Shown here in pieces: positions 2,544-18,036 of a DNA stretch of 64,000 nucleotides. Source of the stretch: Candidatus Latescibacterota bacterium (GTDB lineage Bacteria > Latescibacterota > UBA2968 > GCA-2709665). The notes below the pieces were generated by a model. The model made no database searches. It was given only the letters and a program-made list of their open reading frames with translations, and was not told the DNA's origin. The position numbers and the translations under genes were made by a program. Location: NCBI GenBank assembly GCA_963667175.2, contig CAXXXF010000007.1:128001-192000 (forward strand). The letters run 5' to 3'. Position 1 is the first letter of the stretch, and every line of letters starts with the position of its first letter.

Positions 2544-3565
2544 TTATCGTATGCTTGCCTCGGGCGCCCGCCGGAATCGCAGCCAGTCAACGGGCGCGTA
2601 GTCGTCCGTCAGCGCGGGTACGCCGCGGACCACGGGCTTGCGCTCGCCGAATGGCGTCGTCGGGATCAGCAACGCCAACGCGTCGCCGATTTCCGATTTC
2701 AAGCCACGTATCGCCCGTACGATTTCACTTCCGCTGCGACGGTTTGCATCCAGCGTGGCGACCGCCACAATGTTGCTCCGCTCCGGCACCTGAAAGAGGT
2801 ACACCTGCGGAAATACCCGGGCCAGCGTCCGTATTAGCGACAGGTACAGGACACCCGGCCCGAGCGGCGCCACGTTCATGCTCACAACGCCGCGAGGCGT
2901 CAGGATTCCCTTCACCTCCCTGAAGAATTCCTCCGTTGCCACGTGGTGCGGCATGGAGTCCGCATGAAACGCGTCCAGTACGATCCAGTCGTAACGTTCG
3001 CCCGTCCGTTTTACGAACATCCGCCCGTCGTCCACGTGGATTCTGAGAGCGGCGTCCGCTTCGACGCCAAAAAAAAACGCCTGGCCACGCCAACCACGTG
3101 GGGGTCCAGTTCGACCACGTCCATCGCGACCTCCGGACAGGCGGACCGGACGAATCGTGCGACCGATCCCCCCGCCAGTCCGATCATCAGCACACGTTCC
3201 GGTTTCGTGAACGCCATTCCCAACGCAAGGTACGCCGTGTACGGAACGCGCAGCGCCGTCGGGTTTGCAAGCGTCATCGCGCTCTGTTTCGCGCCGTAAC
3301 CGAATCGGAGGTAGCGGGCTTCGCGGTCTTCCGATACCACGATGTGATTGTACAATGAGTCGTGGACGTAGACCGGCTTTTCCTGCTCCGGGATTCCCGG
3401 TCGGACGTCGCATGCCGCGAGGGGAAAAACCGACAGAACCAGAGGGAGAATGCCGAACGGAAACCGATTGATCGCAGGACGATGATCGGGAACACCCGGC
3501 GTGACGTACAACGCAGCGCATCCCGTCCGGTCCTGCGCTTTCGACAATACGCGAATAACCCGCAT
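2544..3565 (-). CDS. Spermidine synthase-like SAM-dependent domain, lipoprotein-like N-terminus; frameshifted at a T9 run (3069-3077)
   Basis: DSLYNHIVV, LMIGLAGGS and VELDP in frame 3011..3565 continue as DGRMFV, DWIVLDAF and LTDDYAP in frame 2544..3521. Confidence 0.8.
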
Positions 3566-3599
3566 CCTCTCCCTCGTCTCGTCCGCAGCGCGCGCGTGG

Positions 3600-4202
3600 T
3601 CACGACCGGTCTTCGAGCGATACGGCCCGCCCGTGCGTACCCCACATCGCCATCGCCGCCAGCACCAGGAGTACGGCGCCGATCAGGTGGAGTACGTGCC
3701 GCACCCCCATGGCGGGTATCAGGTAAAACGCGGTGCCGAGCGTCCCGGCGATGCTTCCCGCCGCGGACAACGCGGATACCGTCCCCGCAACGGCCCCGAC
3801 CCTGTCGACCCGATCCGCGAGCATCCGGACAACAAAGGGCGTGACGGCGCCCAATGCCACGCCCGGTATCGCAAAAAGCACGATCGAAGCCAGCAGCGGC
3901 CCGCCCCGCGGACCCGCATCCATGGCAAAAACGGCACGATTCACCGACGCCGCCACCCAGGGCAGCAACAACGCCAGCGCCCCCGCGAGGCCAAGCAACG
4001 CGGCCAGGGGCGTTCCCGAAGGCATGCGGTCCGCCAGCTTCCCTCCGGAATACGCGCCCAGACTCAGCGCGGCCAGTACGACGGCGATCAGGCTGCCCCA
4101 GACGAAAACGGAACTGCCGAAATACGGCGCAAGCACCCGGCTGCCCACGATCTCAAGCCCCATCAGCGCGGCGCCGGCAAAAAAAGCAATCAGCTTCAAC
4201 AT
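3600..4202 (-). CDS. Membrane protein equivalent to the N-terminal MFS-like domain of fused MFS/spermidine synthases
   Basis: GAALMGLEIVGSRVLAPYFGSSVFVW and GSIAGTLGTAFYLIP signatures; about 6 TM helices. Confidence 0.85.
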   Translation of the reverse strand: MLKLIAFFAGAALMGLEIVGSRVLAPYFGSSVFVWGSLIAVVLAALSLGAYSGGKLADRMPSGTPLAALLGLAGALALLLPWVAASVNRAVFAMDAGPRGGPLLASIVLFAIPGVALGAVTPFVVRMLADRVDRVGAVAGTVSALSAAGSIAGTLGTAFYLIPAMGVRHVLHLIGAVLLVLAAMAMWGTHGRAVSLEDRS

Positions 4203-4392
4203 ATCCCGCCAAACCCTGGCATGAGTCGACCCGGACCCGACGGACGTTCGATTGACGGTCCGGCGAGGAATTCATCCCCATCGCAGGTACGCTGTTCAAT
4301 GTACGTACAGAACATGGGGCTGCAAAAAGAATTCGCAGCCCTGTAATCTCGAAAGTTTCCGGACGCCCTCGCGATGCCGGGCTCCTCCGTGC

Positions 4393-8258: not shown

Positions 8259-8465
8259 CAGTCCGTTGATAAGGTCGCTCTGCAGGCGAGACCGAGTCAT
8301 TGTGGCCGAAGACAAGGCGCGCAACCGAGTCGAATCGGTGGATTCGGCGAGGGAGCGCCTGCCTGCTGCAGGCAGGCAACGCAGTATATCGGCCACAAGG
8401 GCCGGACGCCTGTCTGCGTGCGAACGCACAGTCAGGCAGCCCGGATGGACTTTTTCAACGGGCTG
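8259..8465. mobile_element. MITE copy 1 (207 bp)
   Basis: TIRs CAGTCCGTTGATAAGGTC / GACTTTTTCAACGGGCTG; colinear with the copy at 17157. Confidence 0.8.
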
Positions 8466-11816: not shown

Positions 11817-11916
11817 TCCAGTCTCCGTAAGGGTCGCCGGGAACGTACCGGCGTTGCCTGATCCGCCATCCGGTAACACGCAGAACAGTATATTTCCGGG
11901 AATCCGCCCTGTCAAG

Positions 11917-11953
11917 AAAAAAAGCCCCGATCGAGTGTTGCTCTCGAGGCTCC
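11917..11953 (-). terminator. Intrinsic terminator after hup
   Basis: AGCCTCGA...TCGGGGC followed by a T tract. Confidence 0.55.
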
Positions 11954-11978
11954 CTGGTCAGAATCGAAGAAATATCGG

Positions 11979-12254
11979 CTAATTGACGGCTTCCTTAAGT
12001 GCTTTTCCAGCTTTGAAACGAACGGTCTTGCCCGCGGAAATCTGAATAGTCTCACCCGTCTGAGGATTTCGACCGGTTCGTGCGGCTCTGGTTCCGATCG
12101 AAAACGTCCCGAACCCGGATATGGCGACGCGATCACCGTTTTTGAGCGAATCGGCGATTTCGTTCAGAACGACACGAAGTGCGGATTCCGCATTCCTTTT
12201 TGATAGACCGGCCTGATTTGCAATTGCATCGACTAGATCGGCCCTGTTCGACAT
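11979..12254 (-). CDS. hup: HU DNA-binding protein
   Basis: GFGTFS, RTGRNPQTGETIQI, RFKAGKALK; promoter TTGACA-N18-TATATT at 12287-12316. Confidence 0.96.
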   Translation of the reverse strand: MSNRADLVDAIANQAGLSKRNAESALRVVLNEIADSLKNGDRVAISGFGTFSIGTRAARTGRNPQTGETIQISAGKTVRFKAGKALKEAVN

Positions 12255-12451
12255 GGCAATTCACCCCCTTTCTGGAATTTGCCCTGAATATAGGCCCGAT
12301 GGTGGGAATTTGTCAAGTGCGCCGATACCGCAGCACAAGAGCAACAATGCGCGGACCGAAATACCCATCCAATCATCACAACGAACCGGAATACAACCGG
12401 TTCGTCCCGGTGTACCTGAATCGCCGGTACCCGCTCGCGGTTGAAGAACGC

Positions 12452-12490
12452 AAAAAACCGGGCGGAGATCGTTTCTCATCTCCGCCCGGT
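12452..12490 (-). terminator. Intrinsic terminator of the EIIA-sigma operon
   Basis: ACCGGGCGGAGAT-loop-ATCTCCGCCCGG followed by T6. Confidence 0.8.
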
Positions 12491-12561
12491 CGAATCCCCC
12501 GGGCATCGTCCCCGCCCCGTTGCAGAACGGGAACGCGCCGCGTCGGACATCGGGAGCTCAT

Positions 12562-12658
12562 CAGCCCGTTGAAAAAGTCCATCCGGGCTGCCTGCCTGTA
12601 CGTTCGCACGCAGACAGGCGTCCGGCCGCGCCTGCAGAGCGCCTTTTCCAACGGACCG
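12562..12658. mobile_element. MITE copy 2 (97 bp, internally deleted, inverted), abutting the sigma-factor stop codon
   Basis: CAGCCCGTTGAAAAAGTCCATCCGGGCTGCCTG...CCTGCAGAGCGCCTTTTCCAACGGACCG is the reverse complement of both ends of copies 1 and 3. Confidence 0.8.
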
Positions 12659-13510
12659 TTATGCCGACTCCATCAACGGTTCGAGTTGCAGCCGTCGGCG
12701 CGGATGGCGAAGTCGACGAAGGGCCTTTTCCTTTATCTGCCGTACGCGTTCCCGCGTAAGGCTGAACCTGGTGCCGATCTCCTCCAGCGTCATCGCTTCC
12801 TCGTCGCCCAACCCGAAATAGAGCCGCAGCACTTCTGCTTCCCGCGCATCGAGTGTTTCAAGGACCATCCTGACCTGATCCTTGACGGACTCGTCGACCA
12901 CTTCAAGGTCCGGCGCCTTTTGAGAGCTGTCCGGCAGAATGTGCAGCAGGCTGTGGTCGTCGTCGTCCTTGAACGACGCATCGAGCGACCAGACATCCCG
13001 TGCCCTGAGGAGGGTATCCTGCACCATGTCCACCGAGACGCCGAGCTTTTCAGCGATCGTCTCGGGATCGGGATCGGCCTCTTCAGATTGCCGAATCTCT
13101 CGCGACACCTTCGCGATATTGTGCAACAGATCGATTCGGTTTATAGGTAACCGGACCACGCGGGAATCCTGCGCAAGACTTTGATGGATGGCCTGGCGGA
13201 TCCACCAGACCGCGTAGGATATGAACTTGAACCCGCGCGTCCCGTCAAATCTTTCCGCGGCCGTCATCAGACCCATGTTTCCCGCACTGATGAGATCGGC
13301 CAATGGCACGCCATGGTTCTGATACTCCCTGGCGACGCTGACGACGAAACGGAGATTCGATGCAACCAGCCTGTCCCTGGCCCGCTGGTCTCCCTTCCGG
13401 ATCCGGTGCGCGAGCGCAATCTCGGTCTCGGCAGTCAGCGGTTCCGAAGAAGCGATATCCCTGAGGTAGAGGTCCAGAGATTCGCTATCCTGAATCATGA
13501 TTCCAGCCAC
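12659..13510 (-). CDS. RNA polymerase sigma-70 factor, RpoD/SigA family without region 1.1
   Basis: SNLRFVVSVA, DLISAGNMGL, FKFISYAVWWIRQ, TLEEIG..LTRERVRQI; GGAGGT RBS. Confidence 0.95.
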   Translation of the reverse strand: MAGIMIQDSESLDLYLRDIASSEPLTAETEIALAHRIRKGDQRARDRLVASNLRFVVSVAREYQNHGVPLADLISAGNMGLMTAAERFDGTRGFKFISYAVWWIRQAIHQSLAQDSRVVRLPINRIDLLHNIAKVSREIRQSEEADPDPETIAEKLGVSVDMVQDTLLRARDVWSLDASFKDDDDHSLLHILPDSSQKAPDLEVVDESVKDQVRMVLETLDAREAEVLRLYFGLGDEEAMTLEEIGTRFSLTRERVRQIKEKALRRLRHPRRRLQLEPLMESA

Positions 13511-13548
13511 GGTCCGACCTCCAGAGTATTAGTGTGCGTTATCCACGT

Positions 13549-14097
13549 TTACGTCGTCAAAACGTGCGCCCTGAGCGCCTCCGGCATCGCGCCGTGCAGG
13601 CGCATCTGCCGCATCAGCAGACCGTTCATCTCCTCTGCCGAACGGGACATGAGAAACGTTGCGGTGAAATCTTCATGGAACAGCCTGCACAAATAGCCCA
13701 GGAGGGGCAGATATCTTATGTCGCCCTCCCCGGGTACCGACACAAGGCAGATGAGTCGAACCGGCTCCCGGTGCGTCTCCGAGTGAAAATCGACGCCGCC
13801 CGGAGAAATGCCCAGCGCCATACCCAGATGCGCAGCCGAACCGCAACGGGCATGGGGAAAAGCAATCCCGTTCCCGACCGCGGTGCTCTCCAGGTCTTCT
13901 CTGTCCAGAACCGACTGCAGGAACCGCAGACTGTCGGTCACGTACCCCGATGCGTGCAGCCGGTCGACAAGCGCCTTGATTGCGCCCATACGGTCGCGGG
14001 GCGCCAGGCTTGCGACCATCGTCGCCGGATGGAAGCCGACCACGCCGCTCAAGTCCGTTTCCCATTCACTGCTGTAGTAGAATTTTGACAGCGCCAT
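13549..14097 (-). CDS. Stand-alone PTS EIIA (fructose/mannitol/Ntr family) protein
   Basis: REDLESTAVGNGIAFPHAR with the conserved phospho-His. Confidence 0.88.
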   Translation of the reverse strand: MALSKFYYSSEWETDLSGVVGFHPATMVASLAPRDRMGAIKALVDRLHASGYVTDSLRFLQSVLDREDLESTAVGNGIAFPHARCGSAAHLGMALGISPGGVDFHSETHREPVRLICLVSVPGEGDIRYLPLLGYLCRLFHEDFTATFLMSRSAEEMNGLLMRQMRLHGAMPEALRAHVLTT

Positions 14098-14332
14098 GTT
14101 GTATTTCGCGTACGCGGGGGTTAAGAATCCGAACAGACGGGGTCGATTTTATCCGCATCGAATTGCAGGGGATGAGCCCGGCATGACGCCAAGTGCAATT
14201 TGTGCAGATTGTTCGACTTGAACCGTCAGTCGCCACATGACAAAAAATGCTCGATAACCAACGCAAAGTTCGCGGTTTTGATAAAAACCTAACGTATCAG
14301 AGATTCCAATGGAATGGTCGCCATAGACTTTA

Positions 14333-14348
14333 AGCAACTTTAATGCCA
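14333..14348 (-). promoter_or_regulatory. Sigma-54 (-24/-12) promoter facing the EIIA-sigma genes
   Basis: TGGCAT-TAAAG-TTGCT matches TGGCAC-N5-TTGC with exact GG-N10-GC spacing. Confidence 0.82.
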
Positions 14349-14446
14349 GATTTCTCGAAAAAAACATAAATGATTAATATTAAAAAACTTGCGCCCGCCG
14401 ATTCCAGACGCCGGGCGCGACAGACTTGTCTCACTTTGCCAGATAA

Positions 14447-14492
14447 CGCAAATTTTGCATCCGAAAATCCGACAGATTGCGCAAATTTTGCA
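14447..14492. promoter_or_regulatory. Tandem enhancer (bEBP) binding boxes
   Basis: Two identical 13-mers CGCAAATTTTGCA at 14447-14459 and 14480-14492, near-palindromic, 33 bp apart, about 100-145 bp upstream of the -24 box. Confidence 0.72.
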
Positions 14493-14542
14493 GCAGGGCG
14501 CGGCCGGGGCGCCGAATAAACCGGATGCGCAGTCTCTCCTGC

Positions 14543-15904
14543 TCAGGAGCCGAGGCTGTATTTCTTGATCTTGTAATGCAGGGCCCGGACGCTGATACCC
14601 AGCACGCGGGCGGCTTCCTGACGGTTGGACGTGACGTGTGCCAGCGTGTTTTCGATCAGAAGGCGTTCCGTTTCCTCTATTGAGGTACTCAGTGGAATGA
14701 CGAGATTCTTCGGAACCGGAGCGGACGCACGGACGCCCGAGGGGAGACGTTGAGGACCGACCTCGGTCTCCGGACACGTCACGACGATCCGTTCCACGGT
14801 GTTTTTTAACTCCCGGACGTTTCCCGGCCAGGCGTAGTTCAGTATCATCCGCATCGTGTCCGGCAAAAACCGTTTCCTGGGTTTGCGATGTGACGCGCAA
14901 AGTTCATCCAGAAAGGTCTCCACAAGCAGCGGAATATCCTCTTTGCGGTCCTTCAGTTGCGGAAGCCGAATGGGAACGACGTTGATCCTGTAATACAGAT
15001 CTTCCCGGAAACGACCCTCCTTCAATTCCTGATCCAGGTTTCTGTTCGTGGCGAATATGATCCGCACGTCGGCCCTTGTGGACACGCTGCTGCCGACCGG
15101 TGTATATACCTTCTCCTCCAGAACCCTCAGAAGGTCCACCTGGTTGGCCAGTGGAATCTCACCGACTTCGTCCAGGAACAGCGTGCCGGCCTCCGCGGCG
15201 GCGAACCGGCCCGGCACGTCGGCGTGGGCGCCCGTAAACGCACCCTTGACGTGACCGAACAACTCACGTTCGAACAACGTTTCCGGAACGGCGCCGCAAT
15301 TCACGGCCACGAGGGGACCCTCGCGGCGGCTGCTCCGCTGGTGGATCGCCCGGGCCACAAGCTCCTTGCCCGTGCCGGTGTCGCCCATCACCAGTACGGG
15401 CACATCCGTTATTGCAGCTTGTGCCAGCGTTTCGCAGACCTGCCGCATGGCCGGACTCCGGTTCACGATCTCTCCGAAAGCCTCGGTCGATCCCAGCCAG
15501 GCCCGCAGTTCCTTGTTTTCCGCGACCAGAGCCTGATGCTCGAGGAGATGCTGCAGGGAGAGGTGCAGGCGTTTGAGATCCACCGGCTTCGCCAGGTAAT
15601 CATACGCACCCAGGCGCATGGCGTCTACCGCCGTGGATACCTCACCAAAGGCGGTAATCATGATAACGCCGGTATCGGGGCTGGTTTTCTTCAGACGCTT
15701 CAACAGGCCAATCCCGTCGATTCCCGGCATCTTCAGATCCAGAATGGCCGCATGGTAAACTCGCGCACTCAGACGTTCGGACGCTTCCACGCCATTATAT
15801 GCGACTTCGACCGAATACCCGACGTTCGTCAAGGACTCTTTAAGTCCCTCGCATATGTGGTATTCGTCGTCGGCAACGAAGATCCTGATATCTTTGGTTT
15901 CCAT
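14543..15904 (-). CDS. Sigma-54-dependent response regulator (NtrC/AtoC family)
   Basis: Receiver ADDE..LDLKMP; Walker A GDTGTGKE; ELFGHVKGAFTGA; FLDEVGE; FREDLYYR; Fis-type HTH. Confidence 0.96.
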   Translation of the reverse strand: METKDIRIFVADDEYHICEGLKESLTNVGYSVEVAYNGVEASERLSARVYHAAILDLKMPGIDGIGLLKRLKKTSPDTGVIMITAFGEVSTAVDAMRLGAYDYLAKPVDLKRLHLSLQHLLEHQALVAENKELRAWLGSTEAFGEIVNRSPAMRQVCETLAQAAITDVPVLVMGDTGTGKELVARAIHQRSSRREGPLVAVNCGAVPETLFERELFGHVKGAFTGAHADVPGRFAAAEAGTLFLDEVGEIPLANQVDLLRVLEEKVYTPVGSSVSTRADVRIIFATNRNLDQELKEGRFREDLYYRINVVPIRLPQLKDRKEDIPLLVETFLDELCASHRKPRKRFLPDTMRMILNYAWPGNVRELKNTVERIVVTCPETEVGPQRLPSGVRASAPVPKNLVIPLSTSIEETERLLIENTLAHVTSNRQEAARVLGISVRALHYKIKKYSLGS

Positions 15905-16049
15905 GTCTATCCGTCCATGTGTCCGTTACGTTCGGTCGCGTGCGGCCGGCATCCGCCGTGGTGACGCAAAATCAAGACCGTTCGTGCGAGTCCGCGGAAG
16001 CCGACCCCGAACTCGGAGCGAATCGGTACCGTTCTCCGGCGCCGGACCG

Positions 16050-17123
16050 CTAACGCCGGGGTTCGGCGGTGGGCAAATGAACCCTGAAAACGGCGCCCTT
16101 TCCCGCTTCGCTCTCCACCTCGACGTGGCCCCGATGCTGAAAGATGATCTGCTGGGCGATGGAGAGCCCGAGGCCGGTTCCTTCATCACGAGTTGTATAA
16201 TAGAACTCGAAAATCCGATCGACTTCCTCGTCCGGAATCCCGCGTCCGGTATCCGAAATCGAGAGGCAGACCTGACGTCCGTCGGAATCCAACCGCGTCC
16301 GGGCGGAGAGTTCCCCGCCCGACGTCATGGCCTGGAACGCATTTACCGTCATGTTCAGGACGGCCTGGCCCAGTTGACTTTCATCTCCATCCACCGCGGG
16401 AAGACCTTCAAGGAGATCCAGATTCAGCCGAATGCCCCGTTCGCGAGCCTCCGGTGAGACCAGGTCGAAAACGTGCTGCACCACGCTGTTGAGGCTTATC
16501 CGCTGCAGATCCAGCCTCGGGGTTCTGCTAAACCTCAGGAAATTGTGTACAATCCGGTCAAGCCGCTTCATTTCCATCTGCGCAATATTGAGCCTGCGAT
16601 AGACACGGCCCCTCAATCCCTGTTCCGCGTCCTTAAGGTCATCTTCCAGGAGCTGCAGTTGAATGTCCACCGCGCCCAGCGGGTTCCGGACCTCGTGAGC
16701 GACGGATGCAGCCAGGCGCCCGAGCGCGCTCATCTTTTCCTCCTGGTACATCCCCCACTCCATCCGTTTCAGGGCCGAAACGTCCTGCACAACCAGAACC
16801 ACTCCCTGGCCCGTATCCGCGTTCAGGCACGACGTGGTAGCACCCAATCGACGCATTCCACCCTCTTCCTGCTGCAATATCACGTCTTTCGGTTCATGAC
16901 ACAGACTCCCTCCAAACCCGGCCTTCAGAATCTTCAGCAGTTCGGGATGCCCGTCAAACAGCTCGTCGACGCTGCGGCCGATCACGTCGCGCTCCGCCAG
17001 TCCCAGCAGGCAAATCGACGCCCCGTTGGCCAACACGGCACGACGACGACGGTCGAACGCGATTACGCCTTCATTCAGGCCCTCCAGCAACTCGATGCTG
17101 TATTCCGCGGCAGATTTCGCCAT
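16050..17123 (-). CDS. Cytoplasmic PAS-domain sensor histidine kinase
   Basis: PAS (LLEGLNEGVIAFD..LANGA), AHEVRNPL H-box, DTGRGI, GTGLGL; no TM segment; start uncertain because of the upstream MITE. Confidence 0.93.
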   Translation of the reverse strand: MAKSAAEYSIELLEGLNEGVIAFDRRRRAVLANGASICLLGLAERDVIGRSVDELFDGHPELLKILKAGFGGSLCHEPKDVILQQEEGGMRRLGATTSCLNADTGQGVVLVVQDVSALKRMEWGMYQEEKMSALGRLAASVAHEVRNPLGAVDIQLQLLEDDLKDAEQGLRGRVYRRLNIAQMEMKRLDRIVHNFLRFSRTPRLDLQRISLNSVVQHVFDLVSPEARERGIRLNLDLLEGLPAVDGDESQLGQAVLNMTVNAFQAMTSGGELSARTRLDSDGRQVCLSISDTGRGIPDEEVDRIFEFYYTTRDEGTGLGLSIAQQIIFQHRGHVEVESEAGKGAVFRVHLPTAEPRR

Positions 17124-17156
17124 GACGGCTCTCCCGTCGGCTGCATTCCGGTCCAA

Positions 17157-17363
17157 CAGTCCGCTGAAAAAGTCGCTCTGCAGGCGAGGTCGAGTCGTTG
17201 TGGCCGAAGACACGGCGCGTAACCGACTCGAGTCCCTGGATTCGGGGAAGGATCGCCTGCCTGCTACAGGCAGGCAACGCCGTATTTCGGTCGCAAGGGC
17301 CGGACGCCTGCCTGCGTGCGAACGCACAGGCAGGCAGCCCGGATGGACTTTGTCGACGGGCTG
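17157..17363. mobile_element. MITE copy 3 (207 bp)
   Basis: TIRs CAGTCCGCTGAAAAAGTC / GACTTTGTCGACGGGCTG; same length and layout as copy 1. Confidence 0.8.
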
Positions 17364-17777
17364 TTAACGTATGCATCCCATCTCCAAAAGGCAAGACCGA
17401 TTCTCTGTCAGAACGGCACGACCCGACGGAGGTTCCAGCCGGGCGCCACTGAAGGAACCCGCCCGATCCGGCGCCGACGTTCATACGCACAACTTCTTCA
17501 GCAGGAACGAGTTGAAACGCGCTTTGGTTCTCGTGGCGAAGGAGGTTCAGACGCAGGACAGCTGAACCTGGCCCTCGTCGATTTCGACCTCGAAGACGAA
17601 CGTTCCCTTTGCGACGCGGACGTGCGCGGACTCCGCGAGACGGGGAGGCGAAGACCGAAAACGGCGCCGGACGACCCGGCTGTTTACGGGTCCGTTTCGT
17701 TCGCTCCGACAAGGGATCGATCCCGTGTAACAACCGGTTGTTATTTTCTCTATCTTTAGAAAAAATAAAGAAAAAAC

Positions 17778-17806
17778 TTGACAACACTCACGTCTTGGTT
17801 TACTTT
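17778..17806 (+). promoter_or_regulatory. Sigma-70-type promoter of rho with A-rich UP element
   Basis: TTGACA-N17-TACTTT preceded by A tracts. Confidence 0.65.
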
Positions 17807-18036
17807 TTCGGTGGTATTCTTCAACTTCCTTCCCACTTTTTCACCGCACACAACCAGACGGCTCCTCGCTTCAGGCATCCCTGGTTACCCGGACTTCCTC
17901 GAACCGCCTCCTTTTGTCAGACACATCCGATTCACGTTTCCGCCGGTTTCTCCGGCCGGCCGAATCCGGCCAGAATCCCCGAAAGATCAACCGTCCGTAT
18001 CATGTATTCCGCAATTTCAGCAAATTGGATTCGCCA

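Follow-up and report, generated by a model that had tools for sequence, protein, structure and literature searches.

The window examined here is a stretch of 64,000 nt from a Candidatus Latescibacterota bacterium (contig CAXXXF010000007.1, positions 128,001 to 192,000), and coordinates below are positions in this window unless another contig or locus is named. On its minus strand, between positions 17327 and 12450, Pfam and NCBIfam scans found four genes in the order PAS histidine kinase, sigma-54 activator, EIIA protein of the phosphotransferase system (PTS) and RpoD-like sigma factor. The initial annotation had described this block together with twin boxes, an AT-rich spacer, a -24/-12 promoter and a terminator, and every feature was recovered by domain scans, motif search and translation, on that strand and in that order. 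The block as a whole goes far beyond what chance would give.

The kinase gene was listed as an open reading frame (ORF) of 425 aa (17327..16050). This ORF is probably too long, since the alignment with relatives begins only at residues 58-83 and the first ~68 codons overlap an interspersed repeat at 17298-17363. The start is probably the ATG at 17123, which would give a soluble protein of ~357 aa (16050..17123, minus strand) with PAS, HisKA and HATPase_c domains; a hydrophobic segment is absent from the translation as read by eye. The closest NCBIfam model is AtoS (288 bits, under the cut-off of 646). The activator (14543..15904, minus strand) has a receiver domain (REC, PF00072), an AAA+ domain (PF00158, 227.8 bits) in which GAFTGA, Walker A and Walker B can all be read, and a C-terminal helix-turn-helix (HTH_8, PF02954), the composition of an NtrC-class bacterial enhancer-binding protein. 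It scored under the NCBIfam cut-offs of AtoC (426.3 vs 714), NtrC (402.3 vs 558.6) and ZraR (384.7 vs 760). In the whole genome the sigma-54 interaction domain was matched 13 times, in 10 cases strongly. The initial annotation had staked its reading on the presence of rpoN, and the gene is there and complete (TIGR02395, 431.3 bits against a cut-off of 277.35; AID, CBD and DBD domains), in the setting lptC-lptB-rpoN. It was also detected in 38 of 41 related genomes, the three misses being 92, 82 and 91% complete.

The activator and EIIA genes are separated by 445 bp. In the direction of transcription this gap contains first two putative enhancer boxes, recognized by motif search and conservation: the distal box 1 (14480..14492, minus strand, TGCAAAATTTGCG) and box 2 (14447..14459, minus strand, TGCAAAATTTGCG), which is spaced 33 bp from box 1 and begins 111 bp ahead of the promoter TGG. 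Across the 5.52-Mb genome the exact box pattern, YGCAAWWWTTGCR, has two occurrences, both at the locus, and because it is confined there the activator looks dedicated to the EIIA-sigma operon. A GC hairpin with a T run follows (14391..14411, minus strand), picked up as a terminator-like match. This hairpin (14411..14391) is likely the terminator of the kinase/activator transcript, and the two regulator genes likely form a first operon that ends there; alternatively, it could be a binding palindrome. The "AT-rich spacer" of the initial annotation opens with this hairpin and its T run, and an A/T-rich stretch is present between hairpin and promoter (14349..14390, minus strand). The A/T-rich stretch may resemble the IHF consensus, and we take it to be a possible site of bending by IHF or HU. 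The predicted sigma-54 promoter, TGGCAT-TAAAG-TTGCT (TGGCATTAAAGTTGCT, 14333..14348, minus strand), is a motif match with GG and GC doublets 10 nt apart on the coding strand, as in the pattern TGGCAC-N5-TTGCW, and places the predicted start near 14322. The leader upstream of EIIA is ~225 nt long and carries a third putative enhancer box (14194..14206, minus strand, TGCACAAATTGCA), conserved and 142 bp after the TGG, which is an addition to the earlier list of features. At the far end, the EIIA-sigma operon closes with an intrinsic terminator (12456..12491, minus strand) made of a 14-pair stem, 9 pairs of it G-C, and then TTTTTTG.

Homologous regions were collected from related genomes, and the 75 loci obtained gave 46 distinct intergenic sequences. 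The activator, EIIA and sigma genes stand in the same order in 71 of the 75 loci, so that the synteny, one of the checks named in the initial annotation, is conserved. The four exceptions are two loci at a contig end, one paralogue and one genus (g3) without the upstream EIIA, in which the same boxes and promoter stand directly before the sigma gene and a second EIIA gene directly follows it. The kinase gene precedes the activator in 40 of the 45 loci with 7-kb flanks (L039-L083); the remaining loci had 1.5-kb flanks, too short to show the kinase. TGGCAY-N5-TTGCN was found in 46/46 distinct regions, with five spacer letters that vary from lineage to lineage. All 46 likewise have a pair of upstream boxes spaced by 31-33 bp (exactly two in 45 of them, with a relaxed pattern), of which the proximal one mostly precedes the TGG by 99-114 bp, and a downstream box stands 116-161 bp after the TGG in every region. 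The conservation of the -24/-12 element and of both boxes, on which the first description had depended, thus held throughout the distinct regions. The hairpin or palindrome is at the equivalent place in most of the 46 aligned upstream regions. We read this as a clear phylogenetic footprint of a predicted sigma-54 promoter with a three-site enhancer. The sigma gene follows EIIA after a gap that reaches 207 bp in some species, and its product is 75-99% identical within the order, with a mean column identity of 90%.

The genera with altered EIIA content gave some further observations. In genus g3 (L080:2327-5158, minus strand) the activator has no adjacent kinase and is divergent from a neighbouring glnD (PII uridylyltransferase), a hint of a connection to nitrogen. 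The second EIIA found after sigma in other genera (L080:7876-8364, L051:7864-8355) is 27% identical to the first, and the window genome has no close copy of it, the best match being 36% on contig C13.

Box 3 is the sole strictly conserved block of the leader. A structured RNA leader was considered for this part of the operon and rejected, since a consensus fold for 12 leaders of the same genus came to -6 kcal/mol with negligible covariation and an Rfam search across 11900-18000 gave no match at E <= 1. In the absence of an Rfam match and of a conserved fold, and with the invariant block coinciding with box 3, the conserved block looks like a DNA signal.

These observations point, with good confidence, to a two-operon cassette in which a dedicated kinase and activator drive the sigma-54 transcription of the EIIA-sigma operon. 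The Borrelia-like switch proposed in the initial annotation is supported in that rpoN, the sigma paralogues, the synteny and the conserved motifs are all in its favour. A literature search on the module returned no description among its top-ranked matches. The gene content, the motifs, their conservation and their exclusivity are facts of the genomes; from them we infer the binding of the boxes, a requirement for sigma-54 in vivo, the signal and what EIIA does. In the mechanism that we propose, the PAS domain of the kinase would sense an intracellular signal and the kinase would phosphorylate the activator. Activator dimers would then occupy all three TGCAAWWWTTGCR boxes, of which two precede the promoter and one follows it, and looping of the A/T-rich DNA would assemble the AAA+ ring, for which the third box may supply, also via looping, the hexamer's third dimer. 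The ring would open the sigma-54 closed complex, so that EIIA and sigma are transcribed. Read-through from the kinase and activator genes would be halted ahead of the promoter by the hairpin with its T run, which follows boxes 1 and 2. The new sigma would compete for core polymerase and redirect transcription. EIIA, probably phosphorylated on His82 by an EI/HPr relay, would tie the output of the switch to the metabolic state, that is, to phosphoenolpyruvate (PEP) and the PTS.

The product of the last gene is an RpoD-like sigma factor of 283 aa (12659..13510, minus strand) with regions 1.2, 2, 3 and 4 (PF00140, PF04542, PF04539, PF04545). It scored under the RpoS cut-off (TIGR02394, 267.5 vs 378.7 bits) and likewise missed the RpoD cut-off. 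Its gene starts at 13510 with a GTG preceded by GGAGG, and all 23 relatives examined use GTG (own family) or TTG (sister family) at this place. The genome encodes no long RpoD and seven short RpoD-like paralogues of ~280-290 aa, on contigs C2, C6, C7, C12, C15, C16 and C17; the other rpoD-like genes that the switch would call for thus exist, six besides the window sigma. Most of the paralogues have orthologues across the order, and in each of five other genomes of the order 6-11 such genes were detected at E <= 1e-20. The paralogue at C2:192065-192877 was the top-scoring one against 17/17 Bacteroidota sigma loci (50-56% identity vs 43-47% for the window sigma) and is the most conserved of the paralogues among relatives (88-99% vs 75-99% for the window sigma). 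In trees that are moderately supported at deep nodes, it grouped with Bacteroidota and Fibrobacterota sigma factors (94/88). The C2 paralogue therefore looks like the primary sigma. That the window sigma is itself the primary sigma had been considered, given its 75-99% identity across the order, and was rejected on orthology, conservation and tree; the possibility that it is the sole constitutive primary sigma, which had been raised as a threat to the switch, falls with it, the C2 paralogue being the better candidate.

The window sigma, 55% identical to the C2 paralogue, and the C12 paralogue fall in sister clades (100/99). Regions 2.4 and 4.2 of the window sigma, read by eye, look close to those of the putative primary sigma. 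It has regions 1.2, 2, 3 and 4 and similar DNA-recognition regions, as in group-2 sigma factors, and because the C2 paralogue is both orthologous to the Bacteroidota primary sigma and more conserved, we assign the window sigma as an alternative, group-2-like factor. All EIIA-linked sigma factors fell in one clade in a quick tree (Shimodaira-Hasegawa-like approximate likelihood ratio, SH-aLRT, 90), separate from the putative primary sigma, and no EIIA, activator or -24/-12 element was found in the contexts of the C12 and C2 paralogues. Two database titles look odd: a contig with a 68% match to the C16 paralogue is titled Komeilibacteria, and contigs with a 98-99% identical window sigma (L041, L045, L046, L052, L084) are titled Gemmatimonadota or Latescibacterota. 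Both are probably labelling or binning inconsistencies.

Orthologues of the window sigma with at least 75% identity were found in 46 of 48 other genomes of its order, and none with at least 75% identity outside this order among 151 genomes of the phylum. An order-restricted invention had been suspected, as sigmas of at least 75% identity were found only in families f1 and f2 and 8/8 loci of family f3 lacked the module; it was dropped when a search with an EIIA profile found the module in f3 and f6 and when the EIIA-linked sigmas fell in one clade. In the neighbouring order (f3), 2/5 genomes have the activator, the boxes, the -24/-12 element, EIIA and a 55%-identical sigma. In another class, both genomes at hand (L193 and L194) show one box, the promoter, a gene for an SLT transglycosylase, two boxes, EIIA and sigma; in L193 this lytic transglycosylase gene (3544-4296) separates the sigma-54 promoter from the EIIA-sigma pair and is followed by the two boxes. 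The distant group has one box upstream and two downstream of the promoter and the window two and one, so that sites on both sides of the promoter are a conserved theme. Metagenomes added 43 loci. The sigma gene begins 50-263 bp after EIIA in 39 of them, and the other four end no more than 547 bp past the match; the activator is upstream of EIIA in 34, the other nine having at most 685 bp of upstream sequence. The strict promoter was found in 33 of the 43. Two of the three activator-bearing loci that lack it were read, and both have TGGTAY-N5-TTGCW at the expected place. By its distribution the module is older than the order, near-universal in the order of the window and patchy elsewhere, and it spans at least two classes.

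Several points weigh against a dedicated sigma-54 switch. The strict motif TGGCAY-N5-TTGCW has 15 matches genome-wide, where rough arithmetic gives ~10 expected, and because this is barely above chance the significance of the promoter comes from its context and its conservation. Support for the grouping of the C2 paralogue with the Bacteroidota sigma factors is moderate only (94/88). The EIIA query found no module in 3/5 genomes of the neighbouring order, which makes the module dispensable. The pairing of activator and boxes is drawn from adjacency and co-occurrence only, and L193 and L194 have boxes and promoter without an adjacent activator gene. A search of public sequencing runs for the stretch returned one DNA run and no RNA run. 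Finally, no sigma-70 promoter was found between the activator and sigma genes with the E. coli consensus, which would miss promoters of the Bacteroidota type, so that a second constitutive promoter for EIIA or sigma is possible.

This last point leads to an alternative that we regard as quite improbable, in which the sigma-54 promoter merely boosts expression and a primary-sigma promoter, unrecognized in the leader or the EIIA gene, makes the sigma nearly constitutive. The high conservation of the sigma (75-99% within the order, mean column identity 90%) would fit such a role, the primary-sigma promoter motifs of the phylum may escape an E. coli consensus, and EIIA-sigma gaps are as long as 207 bp in some species. 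Set against this are the failure of the E. coli consensus to find any sigma-70-like promoter in the region, the fact that the conserved leader blocks are only the activator box and the promoter-proximal part, and the retention of the whole enhancer/promoter architecture even where sigma directly follows it. The loci without an adjacent activator, L193 and L194, suggest a further alternative: the boxes could be the sites of a protein other than the adjacent activator, with the downstream box as a repressor roadblock, since a box within the transcribed leader could block elongation. We hold this to be very improbable. The boxes travel with the activator gene in 34/34 metagenome loci with upstream room, the exact box is unique to the locus in the genome, and the spacing of 31-33 bp and the distance of ~100-110 bp to the promoter match enhancers of the NtrC type. 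Apart from the window promoter there are 14 other strict TGGCAY-N5-TTGCW matches in the genome, one of which (C16:64927, plus strand) follows rpoN at a distance of ~1.3 kb.

The first gene of the predicted sigma-54 operon encodes a stand-alone PtsN-like EIIA of 182 aa (13549..14097, minus strand; PF00359, 77.3 bits), whose start is an ATG without an obvious Shine-Dalgarno sequence. Its best solved relative is PtsN (2a0j, E 4.1e-17), in which the PH motif aligns with H82, the candidate phospho-accepting histidine; this residue, in the motif AFPHAR, is invariant in 24/24 orthologues. The protein thus has the PTS_EIIA_2 fold and a conserved phospho-accepting histidine, and scored 35.3 bits with the PtsN equivalog TIGR01419 (cut-off 138.7). 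The genes for EI (588 bits) and HPr (104 bits) are neighbours on contig C9, that for HprK is on C16, and HPr was detected in 40/41 relatives. No EIIC of the permease family PF02378, the only one searched, was found in the genome, which is 95% complete. The PTS looks regulatory because EI, HPr, HprK and stand-alone EIIAs are present and a PF02378 EIIC is not. No ORF with an EIIA domain (PF00359) was found among those scanned around rpoN. Two further stand-alone EIIA genes are present (C6:680291-680809 and C13:147023-147622), one of them next to the gene of a ClC channel with CBS domains, the other close to that of a BCCT transporter.

The initial annotation had inferred that EIIA may link the switch to PTS status. 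This is helped only by the strict adjacency of EIIA and sigma and by the presence of EI, HPr and HprK. A prediction of the EIIA-sigma complex with alignments A1 and A2 gave a score of 0.00 (mark 0.32), which speaks neither for nor against binding. EIIA and sigma stay paired in genus g3 and in the other class, where there is no adjacent kinase, and this argues that the EIIA gene is tied more tightly to the sigma gene than to those of the kinase and activator. It is conceivable, though in our view unlikely, that EIIA, gated by its phosphorylation, partners the co-encoded sigma as an anti-sigma factor, a chaperone or a proteolysis adaptor. It would then be a new kind of sigma partner that holds, releases or destabilizes its cognate sigma by the phosphorylation state of His82, which we hold to be just as unlikely. 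Sigma activity would depend on two inputs, the two-component signal, through which sigma is made, and the right PTS state, through which it is released or kept stable. The two genes are adjacent in every locus with room (71/75 genome and 39/43 metagenome loci), a second EIIA directly follows sigma where the upstream EIIA is missing, His82 is invariant, and the cell has EI, HPr and HprK. There is also a precedent, as in Azotobacter vinelandii the degradation of RpoS by ClpAP is promoted by unphosphorylated EIIA-Ntr (PMC12923157). Adjacency alone, however, is no proof of contact between EIIA and sigma. EIIA-Ntr is known mostly to partner with kinases, transporters and enzymes rather than with sigma factors, which also counts against a gated sigma. 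If it were true, the sigma would be active only when the two-component and the PEP/PTS signals coincide, the partner switch would come from a PTS protein rather than from STAS/anti-sigma modules, and the promoter DNA, forced into a loop by three straddling activator sites, would be part of the same switch.

EIIA could instead act upstream. Its feeding back on the PAS kinase or on the activator would give PTS-dependent positive or negative autoregulation and leave sigma as the sole true output, a view to which we give a low probability. Most lineages have EIIA at the head of the sigma-54 operon, the kinase is soluble with a single PAS domain as its sole input, and binding of E. coli EIIA-Ntr to the sensor kinases KdpD and PhoR is established. 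Yet the kinase is not adjacent in genus g3 or in the other class, where EIIA and sigma stay together.

Other elements border the block. A REP/MITE-like repeat (repetitive extragenic palindrome or miniature inverted-repeat transposable element; 12545..12650, minus strand, found by blastn) lies between the sigma stop codon and the terminator. The repeat core is ~66 nt, with 116 blastn hits across 18 contigs and copies in the window at 8400-8465, 12545-12650 and 17298-17363. Two copies flank the kinase-to-sigma block, and when translated the repeat yields spurious ORF pieces ("...QAARMDFFNGL..."). Directly downstream of the sigma operon is an HU/IHF-family gene (11979-12254, minus strand) with its own sigma-70-like promoter (11 of 12 positions, 12316..12287), a neighbour common to 24/45 related loci. 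Its product could bend DNA at the sigma-54 promoter.

We know of no cultured member of the Latescibacterota and of nothing on the regulation of their genes, and of the regulatory circuits that their genomes reveal this module is among the best conserved. It would extend the cascade from sigma-54 to a sigma-70-family factor, best known from Borrelia, to the Fibrobacterota-Chlorobiota-Bacteroidota (FCB) superphylum, and would provide a natural enhancer that is predicted to straddle its promoter. With a PtsN-like EIIA and a sigma so cleanly paired at the genetic level, it could help to show what regulatory EIIA proteins act on. Since the module is completely defined (kinase, activator, three operator sites, promoter and two products), it could be rebuilt in E. 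coli.

The kinase and activator share their domain architecture with NtrB/NtrC, AtoS/AtoC and ZraS/ZraR, of which AtoS/AtoC gave the best-scoring NCBIfam models. At glnAp2, NtrC has two strong dimer sites about three helical turns apart and ~100-140 bp upstream of the promoter, a geometry that boxes 1 and 2 of the window resemble in spacing and promoter distance. Unlike NtrC, AtoC and ZraR, the window activator misses the equivalog cut-offs, has a different box (TGCAAWWWTTGCR) and different target genes, and has one site downstream of the promoter. Natural sigma-54 promoters with downstream activator sites (3' enhancers) are reported for Caulobacter FlbD/ftr (Gober & Shapiro 1992, Mullin & Newton 1993, via PMC3096577), and the window locus resembles these in having an activator site downstream of the start. 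FlbD, however, is without such phosphorylatable-receiver logic and has flagellar targets, whereas the Latescibacterota sites straddle the promoter as 2 + 1 or, in distant relatives, 1 + 2.

With PtsN of the nitrogen-related PTS (PTS-Ntr), the window EIIA shares the stand-alone type-2 fold, the conserved phosphorylated histidine, the company of EI, HPr and HprK without a PF02378 permease, and a genetic link to sigma-54, which in Azotobacter extends to RpoS stability. It differs in that it is not in the rpoN operon, which ends without ptsN, and in that it is predicted to be sigma-54-dependent and co-transcribed with a sigma gene. The Bacteroides primary sigma is reported to be short and without region 1.1 (Vingadassalom 2005, 2007, via PMC12632263). 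The window sigma is like this Bacteroidota primary sigma A in its length of ~285 aa, its start at region 1.2 and its 43-47% identity. It differs in being the alternative copy, the C2 paralogue being closer (50-56%).

The Borrelia Rrp2 activator is said to act without an enhancer. The Latescibacterota activator, in contrast, has a helix-turn-helix and three conserved palindromic sites that straddle the promoter. In Borrelia burgdorferi the Hk2-Rrp2-RpoN-RpoS cascade leads from sigma-54 to a sigma-70-family factor (PMC2940757, PMC4014564, PMC11109971). In both systems a PAS kinase gene stands beside that of an NtrC-class activator, and a -24/-12 promoter precedes the gene of a short RpoD-family sigma; both the adjacent kinase/activator pair and the predicted sigma-54 promoter before an RpoD-family sigma gene were found in the window. 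Unlike in Borrelia, the target operon adjoins its regulators and has an EIIA gene at its head, the sigma falls in a phylum-specific clade and is no orthologue of RpoS, and the host is a free-living, uncultured member of the FCB group. The logic of the cascade is thus already known from Borrelia; new, as predicted for the Latescibacterota, are the adjacent target, the straddling three-site enhancer, the co-transcribed EIIA and the phylum-specific sigma clade.

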